Assembly: GCA_037446635.1 (NCBI GenBank)
Contig: JBBIIG010000092.1
Coordinates: 1-11,918, forward strand
From: a bacterium
GTDB taxonomy: Bacteria; Zhuqueibacterota; Zhuqueibacteria; Oceanimicrobiales; Oceanimicrobiaceae
Length of the DNA: 11,918 nucleotides
Direction: 5' to 3'
Below the pieces are notes generated by a model, which was not told the DNA's origin, did not search any database, and saw only the letters and a program-made list of their open reading frames with translations. Each line of letters starts with the position of its first letter. Positions within the stretch are counted from its first letter, which is position 1. Both the position numbers and the translations under genes were made by a program. Shown one piece after another: positions 4,853 to 11,918 of the stretch.

Positions 4853-4992
4853 TTTCTCGTTTCCACGCTCTTTCTCGTTCCCACGCTCTCAGAGTGTGTT
4901 AAAACTCAAAATCGCGATCATAAATATTGAGCTTAAGTTAAGAAAAATGTCCCAAAATCGACTTTTCACACACTCTGTCTGCGTGGGAACGA
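4853..4992. repeat. REP-type palindrome CTCGTTCCCACGC-TCT-GCGTGGGAACGA, split by a MITE, with a tandemly duplicated left arm
   Basis: The left arm ends at 4886 and the right arm is 4981-4992; an intact copy is at 11865-11891. 18-bp tandem copies at 4853-4870 and 4871-4888 differ by 1 base. Confidence 0.85.
4890..4977. mobile_element. 88-bp MITE (non-autonomous IS derivative)
   Basis: TIRs CAGAGTGTGTTAAAACTC versus CAGAGTGTGTGAAAAGTC (reverse complement of the right end) match 16/18. TCT direct repeats flank it (4887-4889, 4978-4980). Removing the element plus one TCT restores the intact REP. Confidence 0.85.
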
Positions 4993-5061: not shown

Positions 5062-5110
5062 GACGCTGAGCGTCCTGCACTAACGCTCCCACGCAGAGCG
5101 TGGGAGCGAG
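5062..5110. repeat. REP-type palindrome, inverted partner of the 4874-4992 copy (REP doublet)
   Basis: GACGC-TGA-GCGTC (5062-5074) followed by CGCTCCCACGC-AGA-GCGTGGGAGCG (5084-5108). The loop AGA is the reverse complement of TCT. Confidence 0.85.
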
Positions 5111-5154
5111 AAGGGATGGAGGGATGGCGTCTCCAAACGGGCTCAAAAAGAAAC

Positions 5155-6699
5155 TCAGGCAGAATACATCAGCGCCAGAATGGTCATGTCATCGTTTTGC
5201 GGCGCGCCGGCCACGAATTTTTTGACCTCGTCCACCACGCCGGAAATCGTTTCTGCGAGCGTCAAACCGCTGCGTCGTCTCAGGCAATCTTCCAGGCGGC
5301 TTTCCGTGAACTCGTTGTTCTCGCTATCCATCGCTTCGGTGATGCCGTCGGTGTAGAGGAAAAGCCCGTCGCCGTTTCCCAGTGTGATTTGTTTAGCCTG
5401 ATACGTTGCTTTGCCGAACACGCCCAACACTAACCCGCCGGTCATTTCGGTGGCCTCGACGCGGCCGTCGCGGCGCAAAATGTAAGGGGGATTGTGGCCG
5501 CCGTTGCAGTAGGCCACTTCGCCGGTGCGGGTGTTGAGAATTCCATAAAAAACGGTGACAAACATGTTGCTGACCCCTTCGGCTGCCAACATGCCATTGA
5601 TTTGTTCGAGACACACCTGCGGCGGCAAACCTCGTAACGCGGTGGATTTGATTAACGTTCGGCACACCGCCATATACAGGGCGGCCGGTACGCCCTTGCC
5701 GGAAACGTCGCCAATCACGAAGCCCAGTTGTTCTTCATCGATCAAAAAGAAGTCGTAAAAATCGCCGCCGACCTCTTTGGCTGGCGTCATCGTGGCCAGG
5801 ATTTCAAACTCGTCCCGTTGCGGGAAAGGCGGGAATTTGCGCGGCACCATCGATTTTTGAATTCGGCTGGCGACGTCCAATTCTTTGGTGAGAGACAGCA
5901 ACTGCTCGCGATCTTTGGCGGCCTGCACGGTTTTTTCAAACAGCAAAGCGTTTTCCAGCGCGGTGGCGGTTTGCAGCGCCAGCGTGGTGAGCAGCTTCAA
6001 ATCGCCGGCCGTGTAATTGACCGGCGTGGCGCTGACCAGCACAATCACCCCGTTCACCCGCTCATTGACTTTTAGCGGCGCGCAGGCCAAAGAAACGATG
6101 CCTTCGTATTCACTGACGTACTGCGAATGCGACGGCAGGTAGTTGATGATTTCGGCGTTGCCGCTAGCCGCGATGCCGCCAACGATGCCTTCGCCCAATT
6201 TGATTCCAGCCGCGGCCTTTAATGGCTGGCCAAAATCCGCGATGACGTTCAGCGTTTGCGTGGCGTCCTCGAGAAGCATCACGGAGCCGCCGCTGGCTTT
6301 GATGAGCTGGCTGGCCAGTTCGAGCGAGGTTTTTGCGACAGTGGTGAGATCGAGCAGCGCCGCCAGCTTCTCCGAAAAATTATAAATCAGGTTGACCTCG
6401 CGATAGAGATGGAGCACCTCATTGCCAAGGGTTTTTTTCTCCGCTTCTTTGGCGGCGAGGTGGGAGATTAACTCCGCCACCGCTTCCGCTGCTTTATTGC
6501 CGGAAACCCAGCCGATGGTTTCGCCTTCGTGCAGGATGGGGAATTTGGCGGCGGGATTTTCAACGGCGCTGCCGGACAGCACCTGCCCGTTTTCGCCTTC
6601 GATGCAAATGTTGGCGCCCAGCGCGTTGATGAGGTTAGCGATCATCAGTGCGGTGTCCTTTTTTCTACCAATCAGGTTTTGTAGAGTTACGTGTGTCAT
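5155..6699 (-). CDS. GAF-domain PP2C/SpoIIE-family (RsbU-like) serine phosphatase
   Basis: GAF region ('GEGIVGGIA', 'SLACAPL...GVIVL', 'ALENALL'); SpoIIE motifs 'VGGDFYD', 'IGDVSGKGVPAAL', 'NGGHNPP', 'YTDGITEA', 'DDMT'. ATG 6699 is better spaced from GAAGG than the track's ATG 6705. Confidence 0.93.
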   Translation of the reverse strand: MTHVTLQNLIGRKKDTALMIANLINALGANICIEGENGQVLSGSAVENPAAKFPILHEGETIGWVSGNKAAEAVAELISHLAAKEAEKKTLGNEVLHLYREVNLIYNFSEKLAALLDLTTVAKTSLELASQLIKASGGSVMLLEDATQTLNVIADFGQPLKAAAGIKLGEGIVGGIAASGNAEIINYLPSHSQYVSEYEGIVSLACAPLKVNERVNGVIVLVSATPVNYTAGDLKLLTTLALQTATALENALLFEKTVQAAKDREQLLSLTKELDVASRIQKSMVPRKFPPFPQRDEFEILATMTPAKEVGGDFYDFFLIDEEQLGFVIGDVSGKGVPAALYMAVCRTLIKSTALRGLPPQVCLEQINGMLAAEGVSNMFVTVFYGILNTRTGEVAYCNGGHNPPYILRRDGRVEATEMTGGLVLGVFGKATYQAKQITLGNGDGLFLYTDGITEAMDSENNEFTESRLEDCLRRRSGLTLAETISGVVDEVKKFVAGAPQNDDMTILALMYSA

Positions 6700-6716
6700 T
6701 TTCATACCTTCACTTT

Positions 6717-6777
6717 ATAGAACACGGATTTAACGGATTACGGATTTTTGACGGATCCGTCCAAACTGTGTCCCTAT
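6717..6777. repeat. Gene-less copy of the GxxExxY-associated palindromic repeat
   Basis: Left arm ATAGAACACGGATTTAACGGATTA (6717-6740) is 22/24 identical to 6780-6803. Right arm ATCCGTCCAAACTGTGTCCCTAT (6755-6777) is a degenerate reverse complement. Confidence 0.7.
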
Positions 6778-6780
6778 TGA

Positions 6781-7291
6781 TAGAACACGGATTGGACGGA
6801 TTAGGCTGATTTTGACAGATTTTGATGACCTTGCTTAAGATGATTTTGAAAGATCTTTCGCTTGAATTCCGGTTCTTTGCCAAAATTTAAAAGAAGGCCA
6901 ACTTCAATGGTAGTGGCTTTTAAATAGTTTGTGAGTTGTGCCTCATGTTCTTCACATATTGATTTAGCCGCCTTTAACTCAACGATAACAAGATTCTCAA
7001 CAAACAAGTCGGCGTAATAATCCCCTACTTCTTCTAATTCGTAGAAAACCTTAATATTTTTTTGCTGGCTGACTTTAAGCCCAACTTTTTCTAGCTCGAT
7101 GGCCATGGCATTTTCGTACACCTTTTCCAAAAAGCCATAGCCGAGAGTGTTGTAAACTTTATAAAATGACCCGATAATCTTTTCAGTAATTTGTTCGTGT
7201 AACATTCCCGTCCTCCCATTTAGATTTCTAACACAAAAATAGAAAAGACAAATCCGTTTCAATCAGTTCGATCCGTTTAATCCGTGTTCCA
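6781..7291. mobile_element. Putative inverted-repeat-bounded GxxExxY cassette
   Basis: 6781-6822 and the reverse complement of 7250-7291 match at 31/42 positions without gaps. The enclosed gene is AT-rich (21/60 GC in both 6841-6900 and 6901-6960, versus 34/60 at 8221-8280). Mobility is inferred, not shown. Confidence 0.55.
6801..7205 (-). CDS. GxxExxY protein (PD-(D/E)XK nuclease-like family), 134 aa
   Basis: 'LGYGFLEKVYENAM' (GxxExxY), 'YYADLFVENLVIVELKA' (D...ExK), 'HEAQLTNYLKAT', 'GLLLNFG'. ATG 7205 has SD GGAGG at 7212-7216; the track's TTG start at 7262 lies inside the repeat. Confidence 0.93.
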   Translation of the reverse strand: MLHEQITEKIIGSFYKVYNTLGYGFLEKVYENAMAIELEKVGLKVSQQKNIKVFYELEEVGDYYADLFVENLVIVELKAAKSICEEHEAQLTNYLKATTIEVGLLLNFGKEPEFKRKIFQNHLKQGHQNLSKSA

Positions 7292-7298
7292 TTTGCTG

Positions 7299-7676: not shown

Positions 7677-7715
7677 TTGTTCTCCTTATCGTGATGATTT
7701 ATTCTACTTTTACTG

Positions 7716-7763
7716 GACGCGGAGCGTCTCCAATTTCGCTCCCACGCTGAACGTGGGAGCGAG
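7716..7763. repeat. REP-type palindrome, same family as 5062-5110
   Basis: GACGC-GGA-GCGTC (7716-7728) followed by TCGCTCCCACG-CTGAA-CGTGGGAGCGA (7736-7762). Confidence 0.85.
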
Positions 7764-7776
7764 AAAATTTACCAAG

Positions 7777-10700
7777 TTATTTCACCGGCAGCGCGAACGA
7801 AAACGTGCTGCCTTTGCCGATTTCGCTCTCCACCCAAATCCGCCCGCCGTGATGCTCGACGATTTCTTTGCAAATCGTCAGGCCGAGGCCGGTGCCTTTG
7901 GGCTTGTCGGTCAGCGTGTCGCCCACCTGCTTGAATTTTTCGAACACCTTCGGGCGGTCTTCCGCGGCAATGCCGACGCCGGTATCGCTGACGCTGATTA
8001 CGATCTCGTTGTCTTTTCGTTCGGCGCGGCAGGTCACCGAGCCTCTCTCCGTAAACTTGACCGCGTTGGAAATGAGATTGACCACCACTTGAATGAGCTT
8101 GTCGCGATCGCCAATGATCTGCGGCAGCTCGCCATCGAGGTCTTTGACAAACCTCAGCCCTGTCTTTTCGAAAAGCGACGTGGTCGCTGCCGCCGCGCCT
8201 TCGATGATTTCCGGCACAGCAACCGTAGTCATGCCCCACGCAACCTTGCCGGCTTCGATTTTGGCGAGATCGAGCACGTTGTCGATCAGCGCAGTCAGCC
8301 GCTCGCCTTCGGCGACGACGACGTTGAGATTTTCCTTCACCTGCTCGACGAGGCGCTGGGTTTTGGGGTCATCGTTGTGCAGCAGCGGAAACAACTTCTC
8401 CTCCAGCCGGTTCTTGATAATTTTGCTGAAACCGAGCACCGAAGTGAGCGGTGTGCGCAGCTCGTGACTGACATTGGAAAGAAAGTCGCTCTTGGCCTGA
8501 CTGGCAGCTTCGGCGGCGGCGCGCGCCCGCTGCATCTCTTCGAACAAGCGCGCGTTTTCGAGCGCCACCGTCGTATAAGCCGCGAGATTTTGCAACAGGC
8601 TGAGATGATAGTCGGTGTAGGCGTTTTTCTTAAAACTCTGGATGGTGATGACGCCCAGGACTCGGTCCTGCGAGATCAGCGGTAGATAGATAATCGAAAG
8701 CGGCTCCTCTGGGAGCGTGCCATCTTCGAGTGCTGTACCGGCAACGTTGGCCGTCTTGAAGTGGCTGATATAGCGGCTGTATTCTTGCGTCACGTCATTG
8801 ATAAAAACCGGCTGGCGGTGGTCGATGCACCACACCGGAAATTGATTTTTATCGTGGGTGTCGCGCGTGTAAGGCTCGTAGCGCTTGCCCTTTTCCATGG
8901 CGAATTTGTACTCGATCTGATTCTTTTCCGAATGGTAAATCCCGACGCCGAAGATTGTCGCATCGACCAGCGCGTTGATGTGTTCGTAGAGCCGGTGAAA
9001 GATCGTCTCGAAATCCAGCGAGGCGGTGATCTCCTTGCCGATGTCGCTCAACCGCTCGATGTTTTTGCGGCGCTCGTTCTCGGCGTCCGCACGCAGTTGT
9101 GCTTCCCGCAGGGTCGCCCGCTGCCGCTCGTGCCGGCGCACGCGGCCGCGCTGGACTCGATCCACCGCGAAAATCAAGCCTGCCAGCAAAATCCCATAAA
9201 GTACATACGCCCACCAACTCCGCCACCACGGCGGCGTGATGGTGATGCGCAACGCTGCGCCCTCCTCGTTCCAAACGCCGTCGTTGTTCGAGCCTTTGAC
9301 GCGGAAAACATATTCTCCCGGATCGAGGTTGGTGTAGGTGGCAAACCGCCGGTCGCCGCAATAGGTCCAATCCGCGTCGAAGCCGTCCATTTTATAAGCA
9401 AAGCGATTTTTTTTGGGCGCCACATAGTCGAGCGCCGCGAATTTAAAGGAGAACACACTTTCTTTGTAGGAGAGCGTGAGGTGATCGAGCTCCATGACGT
9501 GGCGGGGTAGCGAAAATCGTTCTGCTGTTCTCGCGGTATCGATCTTCACCGCTTCGTTGAAGACGTGAAAATCGGTGATGACGATGGGCGGCGCGTGCGA
9601 ATTTTCTTTGATGCTGTCCGGATGGAAAACGTTCAAGCCATTGATGCCGCCGAAATACATTTTGCCGTCCCGCCCCTTGTAGTACGCCCGATGGTTGAAT
9701 TGCCGGCTCTGCAGGCCGTCATCGACGCTGTAGTTTTTGATCCCGCCCGAGCGGGATTTCGGGTCGAATCGGCACAAGCCGTTACTGGTGCTGATCCAGA
9801 GACGACCGTGGCCATCCTCGAGAATGCCGTGAATCTCATTGCTCGGCAGACCCTCTGATTCCCGATAGGCCGTGAAGGTTTCCGTCGCCGGATCGAATTT
9901 GTTGAGGCCGTTGTACGTGCCGACCCAGAGCTCGCCGTTCGAGGTTTCGTGGATGACGAGCCTCACATTGTTGGTCAGACTTTCAGAGTTATCCGGATGA
10001 TGCGGATAAAGTTTGAGACGAAACACCCCCAGGCTTTCCACACTGAGCAATCGTTCTTCTTTACTTTGTTGGGACTGCGCAGGGATTGAATTCGCTGGCG
10101 CCGAATGCGGAACCGCGGCCAGCCGGTAGAGCCCCTCGCTATCGGTGCCGAACCACAACACGCCCGGCTGCCGCGGCGATTCAAAAAGTGATTCCACGGC
10201 CTCATGGCTGGGGTCATCGGGTTGCTTGCCATTGTGCGGAAGATAGATGAATTTTTTGGCTTTCCAATCAAAGCGATTGAGTCCGCCGCCGTCGGTGCCG
10301 ACCCAGAGAATGCCCGGCTCGCTCAGGGATTCGTGCAGCGAGGTGATGCGGTTGTTGGTCAGGGTGCCGGGATGGTCGGGATCGTGTTGATAGCGCGTGA
10401 AGACGCCGGTTTTGCTGTCGAAACGATTGAGCCCGCCATTAAATGTGGCGATCCAAAACACGCCCGGCAGTTGCCGCGATTCGCGGATGACAGTCACATA
10501 ATTATTGCTCAGGCTGTTGGGGTTCCTGGGGTTATTTTGAAAATGTCTAAAAACCGGCGCCCTGCCGCCGTCCCAGCTTATTTGCGTGATGCCGGCATCC
10601 TGCGTTCCCACCCAAACTCTGCCGAGATGATCCGCACAGACAGCCGTAACAAAATTGGCGATCAAGCTGTTCGGGTTATCCGGCTCGTGGCGATAATGCG

Positions 10701-11823: not shown

Positions 11824-11864
11824 CGAACAGAAAATTTTTGAATATGAATAAAGGTTAAGAATCT

Positions 11865-11891
11865 CTCGTTCCCACGCTCTGCGTGGGAACG
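11865..11891. repeat. Intact REP-type palindrome upstream of the kinase
   Basis: CTCGTTCCCACGC-TCT-GCGTGGGAACG. Confidence 0.88.
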
Positions 11892-11918
11892 GATACCCTA
11901 CGTGTGCGCTCTCTACTT

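Follow-up and report, generated by a model that had tools for sequence, protein, structure and literature searches.

A low-GC insert in a signalling operon

The stretch of DNA analysed here (hereafter the window) comprises 11,918 nucleotides, positions 1 to 11,918 of contig JBBIIG010000092.1 (assembly GCA_037446635.1), from a bacterium of the Oceanimicrobiaceae in the phylum Zhuqueibacterota. It contains an operon in which a sensor kinase, a single-domain response regulator (receiver) and a GAF-SpoIIE phosphatase all lie on the minus strand around a small gene of the GxxExxY family (PF13366/TIGR04256). That gene is part of a 593-bp insert in which it is bracketed by inverted, periodic arms, and the insert belongs to a widespread family of nuclease-plus-repeat cassettes that is apparently undescribed. 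The features of the locus, in window positions, are the following.

5155-6705, minus strand: host gene downstream of the insert, GAF-SpoIIE phosphatase
6706-7298, no strand: whole insert from receiver stop to phosphatase start, 593 bp, 38% guanine-cytosine (GC), missing in the same-genus genome
6717-6756, plus strand: arm D, outer right, the best partner of arm A (20/22), its end 11 nt from the phosphatase ATG
6755-6777, minus strand: arm C, a short additional arm of the left type with two units, predicted to form a hairpin with arm B
6780-6822, plus strand: arm B, inner right, covering the final codons and stop of the GxxExxY gene
6801-7205, minus strand: GxxExxY (PDDEXK_3) gene, 134 amino acids, with the predicted catalytic residues E27, D66, E76-x-K78 and Q90-xxx-Y94 intact
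7212-7217, minus strand: Shine-Dalgarno-like GGGAGG, 6 nt ahead of the ATG, a presumed ribosome site
7250-7292, minus strand: arm A, upstream (left), four ACGGAT-like units with a period of 9-10 nt, beginning 6-10 nt past the receiver stop codon
7299-7676, minus strand: host gene upstream of the insert, single-domain response regulator

An earlier reading made from the letters of the window alone (the sequence-only reading) had described an inverted repeat around a low-GC gene whose stop codon lies within one arm, and these descriptions were reproduced. The ungapped identity between 6781-6822 and the reverse complement of 7250-7291 is 31/42, a value reached in none of 2000 shuffles of both intergenic spaces (mean 20.7, maximum 28), and no other inverted repeat in the window is as long as this pair. 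The GC content of the GxxExxY gene is 36%, versus 56% in the kinase and phosphatase and 50% in the receiver, and its GC content at third codon positions is 0.38, versus 0.64-0.70 in the neighbouring genes. The extent given for the element needed revision: two more arms (C and D) accompany the original pair, so that the order along the transcript is A - gene - B - C - D. Since arm A finds its best match in the outer arm D and the predicted RNA fold joins outer with outer (A-D) and inner with inner (B-C; z-score -7.8 against 20 shuffles), the element is taken to span 6717-7292. The B-C hairpin is also predicted for DNA. Scans for promoters and terminators gave matches at chance level only, with no promoter match on the strand of the GxxExxY gene, and the Rfam search of the window returned two chance-level matches only.

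Empty and filled junctions

In a genome of the same genus (hereafter the sister species), the receiver stop overlaps the phosphatase start and there is no insert, whereas the window has 593 additional bases at this point. A survey of the receiver-phosphatase junction covered 12 loci (L006, L025 and 10 metagenome loci, some of them close kin), one of which lacks a gene start. The remaining 11 junctions include eight that are empty or nearly abutting, one with a 50-bp spacer and two with other hairpin inserts, one of which includes a gene-less arm pair of the GxxExxY arm family; a GxxExxY gene is present in 0/11. Fixed membership in the operon is ruled out, as this receiver and this phosphatase flank a GxxExxY gene nowhere else among the loci grouped by their flanks. 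The 593-bp insert is an insertion into an otherwise empty junction, and on this point the sequence-only reading, which had suggested comparing orthologous junctions, was right. The MAFFT alignment of the filled and empty alleles misplaced the gap, and the junction was read from comparisons of the loci.

Contigs from DNA sequencing runs place the cassette at the identical position in a close strain, with 10 differences and 3 gaps over 499 bases (runs X1 and X2, which may be a single data set), and in a relative that is ~87-95% alike (run X4, record 28). Among the joints listed for the contigs of four DNA runs, none links receiver directly to phosphatase; a joint of 6822 to 7270 in run X4, with only 24 bases on one side, was taken as a repeat of another organism. 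At L025, a different hairpin repeat (of the CCAACGGAT...AACCCCAACTGATAAA...TCCGTTGGGTTCTTC type) follows the receiver, and in L119 it precedes the receiver.

The GxxExxY protein

The window protein matches TIGR04256 with 137 bits (cut-off 35) and PF13366 with 143 bits (cut-off 22). Its AlphaFold model (mean predicted local distance difference test, pLDDT, 92) resembles Cas4 SSO0001 (PDB 4ic1), the lambda and LHK exonucleases, Hjc and restriction-endonuclease-like folds (Foldseek best E 1.5e-4, template-modelling score about 0.5; VIA best Z 8.0-8.4, a middling value that says nothing on function). Residues E27, D66, E76, K78, Q90 and Y94, which we take to form a RecB-type active site, are each kept in 131-136 of 136 sequences (D66 in 134, E76 in 131, K78 in 135, Q90 in 133 and Y94 in 136). 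With a RecB/Cas4-type PD-(D/E)XK fold in the model and both the ExK and QxxxY motifs in place, the protein is a predicted nuclease. The median ratio of nonsynonymous to synonymous substitution rates (dN/dS) is 0.09 in 36 close pairs, none of which includes the window gene; purifying selection acts on the protein, and the catalytic motif is retained. Searching the PDB by sequence gave no significant match and the ESM Atlas gave PF13366 clusters only, while PADLOC gave only weak matches (PDC-M36A at E 5e-4 for the window protein; top family in 10/136 members). In one table of PMC3424549, PF13366 is entered as 'Unknown' with multiple transfers.

Periodic arms at GxxExxY loci across genomes

Inverted periodic arms stand on both sides of all four GxxExxY genes in the genome of the window, and every gene has an arm unit of its own; the paralog on contig C31, for instance, is of another arm type than the window gene. 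Of the 80 closest relatives in GTDB, 77 have full flanks, and an inverted-match score of at least 30 is found in 51/77, versus 0/64 offset controls. A wider set of 210 loci (209 with a strong match, 10 duplicates dropped) yielded 184 full-length loci with full flanks, among which a score of at least 28 is reached in 128/184, versus 2/160 offset controls; the association of inverted flanks with GxxExxY genes that the sequence-only reading proposed to look for thus extends well beyond the window. Of the two outcomes named there as refuting it, fixed synteny in the operon across distant taxa and a lack of genome-wide association, neither was observed. In the clade of the window, the arm starts with ATAGAAC[AG]C[AG]GAT and has a period of ~9 nt, a form seen in Bacteroidota, Ignavibacteriota, KSB1, Nitrospinota and others, and the terminal motif of the arm is conserved across phyla. 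Flavobacterium tiangeerense (L092) is one cultured carrier in the close clade.

Arm-type labels (based on our own motif definitions and a quick tree) change 46 times on the protein tree, versus 97 times when shuffled, and paralogs within one genome sit in different protein clades. By these labels, arm type goes with the protein clade and not with the host. This fit shows joint inheritance of gene and arms; it falls short of recognition, as only three independent pairs bear on a code. The top C-terminal columns in the recognition-code analysis proved to be an artefact of clipped sequences.

The flanks of GxxExxY loci are mostly unrelated, with 178 upstream flanks falling into 140 groups and 172 downstream flanks into 139. 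In 11 pairs of loci, DNA identity of at least 78% is confined to the gene and its arms. Three of these pairs are copies within a miniature inverted-repeat transposable element (MITE), one has a common upstream gene and one has longer repeated flanks; the six remaining pairs are 79-85% identical over gene plus arms only. The MITE, 584 bp long with GTAA...TTAC ends, occurs in genome G050 as three copies (L222, L226 and L231) that are 98.5-99% identical and carry a GxxExxY cassette as passenger, and two of the three have clear 8-bp target duplications. Among 161 loci, both arms were detected in 107, 51 of which have extra arms like those of the window, and the GxxExxY gene is co-directional with both neighbours in 76 of the 97 loci where both were called. 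The distance from host stop to arm is at most 30 nt in 73/99 and that from arm to ATG at most 40 nt in 56/95, as raw counts without a control. A search of viral contigs with the paralog L001 returned no relative.

Four-helix-bundle cassettes with the same layout

Arms of this kind also enclose a second cargo. In the genome of the window, a four-helix-bundle gene (TIGR02436) lies between inverted heptamer runs (contig C38, 17535-18115; L248), and in the sister species the junction of the same two genes (C529/C324; L113, L110) holds a GxxExxY gene with CACAGAG-type nonamer arms, on two contigs with a 14-base overlap that we presume to be joined. Among the 29 loci covering this junction, the four-helix-bundle cassette of G008 and the GxxExxY cassette of G018 are both decayed, and in G009 the contig ends with an arm; the rest have neither cassette, are cut off or are rearranged. 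The alternation at this junction (seen also in L293, L294 and L309) occurs even within one genus, with decayed forms in other genera. Inverted tandem arms are present at 7/7 four-helix-bundle loci inspected, out of 12 found in the window genome and the sister species. The inverted-array layout is common to two unrelated proteins, which speaks against any need for a nuclease cargo. According to PMC4990558, the four-helix-bundle family (S23p) is what 23S rRNA intervening sequences are known to carry.

Arm pairs without a gene

A scan of the window genome located 34 arm pairs, 30 of which enclose no GxxExxY gene. Across 113 genomes of the phylum, the arm pattern has 9,224 matches, versus 1,084 control matches, and a GxxExxY-family match is present in 103, with 0-11 copies per genome. 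Genomes with a canonical gene (83) have an excess arm density of 14/Mb, those with a weak match only (20) one of 1.8 and those without the gene (10) one of 3.8; all these values are to be read with a cut-off picked after viewing the data, kin that are non-independent and a pattern that misses some arm types. The weak-match genomes, with their few arms, possibly hold a separate arm-less subfamily. Stop codons occur in 14 of the 150 copies listed, which indicates gain and decay of the gene. Among the first 30 of 97 arm matches in the sister species, six places have both flanks collinear in the window genome, where three are empty, one has another insert, one has a partial arm and one shares the outer arms around a different filling; gene-less arm pairs have been gained or lost between these sister species. 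A 264-amino-acid frame in the sister species (contig C365; L111, L112) contains two tandem divergent GxxExxY-like matches.

DNA sites or an RNA stem

The sequence-only reading had offered two roles for the repeats, namely sites recognised by the protein or a transcript stem that loops out the gene. The arms of one locus match each other better than random pairs of their class do (26.8 vs 22.1 of 41; 45 loci), and the excess is small when arms are swapped with those of the nearest protein neighbour (23.2 vs 22.1 of 33, p 0.08). Changes in the arms were compensated in 66 cases versus 289 in one arm only, mismatches at several linker positions are as frequent as between randomly combined arms, and there is no G.U bias toward the transcribed strand (155 vs 134, p 0.24; 101 loci). 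The loop-out idea keeps a stable predicted stem in its favour, but it gains nothing from strand bias and little from the excess of own partners. The units of the arms are conserved and the linkers far less so, a pattern that is somewhat easier to reconcile with arrays of binding sites than with selection for a stem.

Comparison with known systems

The analogy drawn at the outset was with repetitive extragenic palindromic (REP) sequences and their REP-associated tyrosine transposases (RAYTs), for which the comparison draws on parts of PMC2817692 and PMC5581495. The layout is similar in both: a gene lies between inverted repeats that are also abundant without a gene throughout the genome, the repeat type co-varies with the protein clade (here as co-inheritance), repeats are stacked in alternating orientation, and persistence is slow and mainly vertical. 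The analogy fails for the enzyme and for the form of the repeat. RAYTs are IS200-like tyrosine transposases, whereas the window protein has only PF13366/TIGR04256 matches and a predicted PD-(D/E)XK fold of RecB/Cas4 type; REPs are self-palindromes with a GT(A/G)G head, whereas GxxExxY arms are non-palindromic tandem units of 8-10 nt, starting with ATAGAAC in the clade of the window. Several divergent GxxExxY genes at unrelated sites in one genome are a further difference.

The 23S rRNA intervening sequences that bear an open reading frame (e.g., in Coxiella and Leptospira; described in part of PMC4990558) likewise combine a small frame, complementary ends able to form a stem and a sporadic distribution. 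In the window such a stem is predicted between the outer arms, and genes of the intervening-sequence protein family lie between arms of this layout in the window genome, with one junction in common with GxxExxY. The window insert differs in lying between protein genes, in its cargo and in the lack of strand bias in the stem; no rRNA match was found in the window, nor at the 20 loci tested among 31 without a long open reading frame on at least one side. The cassettes share with MITEs and insertion sequences their small size, their flanking inverted repeats, the existence of gene-less forms and sites that are empty in relatives; unlike these, they have no transposase-family match, their arms are imperfect and periodic, and there are no young self-bounded copies. 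By the tests run, the cassette is not a REP/RAYT system, a MITE or an rRNA intervening sequence. The protein resembles Cas4 and the RecB- and lambda-type exonucleases in its predicted fold and D...ExK...QxxxY motif, but differs in being a minimal domain with no four-cysteine cluster motif among its conserved columns, and there is no Cas gene in the window. Resemblances to integron cassettes and type III toxin-antitoxin systems were set aside on general knowledge. A literature search, which did not extend to subscription papers and supplements, found no description of a GxxExxY gene-plus-arm family; the name occurs in three papers, among them 10.1101/2021.01.26.428298 and PMC12085832, where it is a passing annotation, and PMC10910872 does not deal with the family.

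Other repeats and neighbouring genes of the window

REP-like palindromes (of the CGCTCCCACGC...GTGGGAGCG type) occur at 4875-4992, 5075-5116, 7728-7765 and 11858-11895, in three intergenic spaces, and are similar to Pseudomonas REPs tabulated in PMC2817692. A short remnant of a GGATTAAT/GGATCGAT-type repeat lies at 1836-1860, and 2224-2372 contains a hairpin family (GTCATTCAGGAGG/GTCATTTCG...CGAAATGAC) that is also seen within arm pairs elsewhere in the genome. Comparison of 7677-7780 with L006 40-1050 indicates that the window kinase ends at its ATPase domain, and the kinase preceding the receiver in the sister species and in several metagenome loci has additional C-terminal receiver domains. 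Between phosphatase and glycosidase, the sister species has a 73-amino-acid gene (L006 3310-3531), presumably HicB-like, where the window has REP-like repeats.

Proposed mechanism and competing explanations

The explanation to which we give an even chance is that of a slow selfish cassette without a transposase, in which the predicted nuclease recognises and cuts its own arms and host repair completes each move. It starts from the insertion itself, the co-inheritance of gene and arms, the unrelated sites, the gene-less derivatives and the conserved catalytic residues, and from these we infer binding of the arms, their cutting and the causing of movement by the GxxExxY protein. The gene, with its own ribosome site and no promoter match on its strand, would be read from the transcript of the host operon. 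Its product would bind the units repeated every 9-10 bp, perhaps with one subunit per unit, and would cut near the conserved outer end of the arm (ATAGAAC in the clade of the window). Host recombination or end joining may then re-integrate the cassette or gene-less arm pairs, often beside or within older arms, which would account for the nested arms of the window. Copies may persist at co-directional gene junctions because the cassettes bring no promoter or terminator.

Several results weigh against such a self-moving cassette. The window protein has no strand-transfer domain and no separate DNA-binding domain. No target-site duplication is visible at the insert, where the filled and empty alleles are only ~80% identical, and the cassette is not a fresh jump, having been inherited in place among relatives. 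The three other paralogs in the window genome are 39-70% identical to the window protein, so that recent copies are lacking, and the sole near-identical cassette copies lie inside the G050 MITE, which has its own ends; together these exclude a recent self-driven burst. Four-helix-bundle genes, which are no known nucleases, share the layout and a junction with GxxExxY genes. Arms at a density of at least 5 per Mb are kept in 5/10 gene-free genomes, and arm density does not correlate with gene copy number in the 83 genomes with a canonical gene (rho 0.14, p 0.22). GxxExxY matches are absent from 50,697 phage records and number eight in 72,556 plasmid records.

A possible but rather doubtful alternative is that the arms are a generic mRNA wrapper as in rRNA intervening sequences, with pairing in the transcript looping out the small gene or allowing its excision so that the insert is harmless; movement would then be due to host recombination or an unknown factor acting in trans, and GxxExxY would be one of several passengers. 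The predicted A-D stem around the whole insert, the closeness of arms to host genes (in counts without a control), the co-directional neighbours, the better match of own than of permuted arm pairs, and an intervening-sequence cargo that is arranged alike and occurs in place of GxxExxY at one junction all speak for a wrapper. It is harder to reconcile with the absence of sense-strand G.U bias, the small excess over nearest neighbours, the predominance of one-arm changes, the linker positions that pair no better than at random and the 20 tested loci with no adjoining rRNA, and it leaves the tie between arm type and nuclease clade unexplained.

That the gene is a domesticated host nuclease serving repair or anti-phage defence, with the arms as spread binding or autoregulatory sites and mobility incidental, is improbable in our judgement. 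The presence of the family in most genomes of the phylum, the low dN/dS and vertical inheritance at some sites are in keeping with it, and RAYTs are described as domesticated (in part of PMC5581495), whereas the variable copy number at unrelated sites, the frequent decay and the weak PADLOC matches in a minority of members are not. A chance repeat beside a sporadically acquired gene has a negligible probability: the arms are A/T-rich and only 74% complementary, but the shuffles, the terminal motif conserved across phyla and the family-wide counts already refute it.

Returning to the self-moving cassette, its wider form is that GxxExxY proteins mobilise a class of transposase-free elements not described so far, in which each clade reads its own arms with a period of 8-10 bp and spreads cassettes and thousands of gene-less pairs across many phyla. 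Such a class would amount to a PD-(D/E)XK equivalent of the RAYT/REP system, in competition with four-helix-bundle cassettes for operon junctions, a generalisation that we advance tentatively and rate somewhat below an even chance.

Implications

For a large protein family entered as 'unknown', the flanking arms are a concrete candidate substrate that can be put to the test, and an abundant repeat family is seen to shape operon junctions in phyla that have received little study. If the arms are an mRNA wrapper, the long-unexplained intervening sequences of rRNA would be extended to protein-coding operons. If it is true that a 134-amino-acid nuclease moves these units, they would represent a new, transposase-free way for DNA to spread, together with a compact enzyme that has clade-specific sites.
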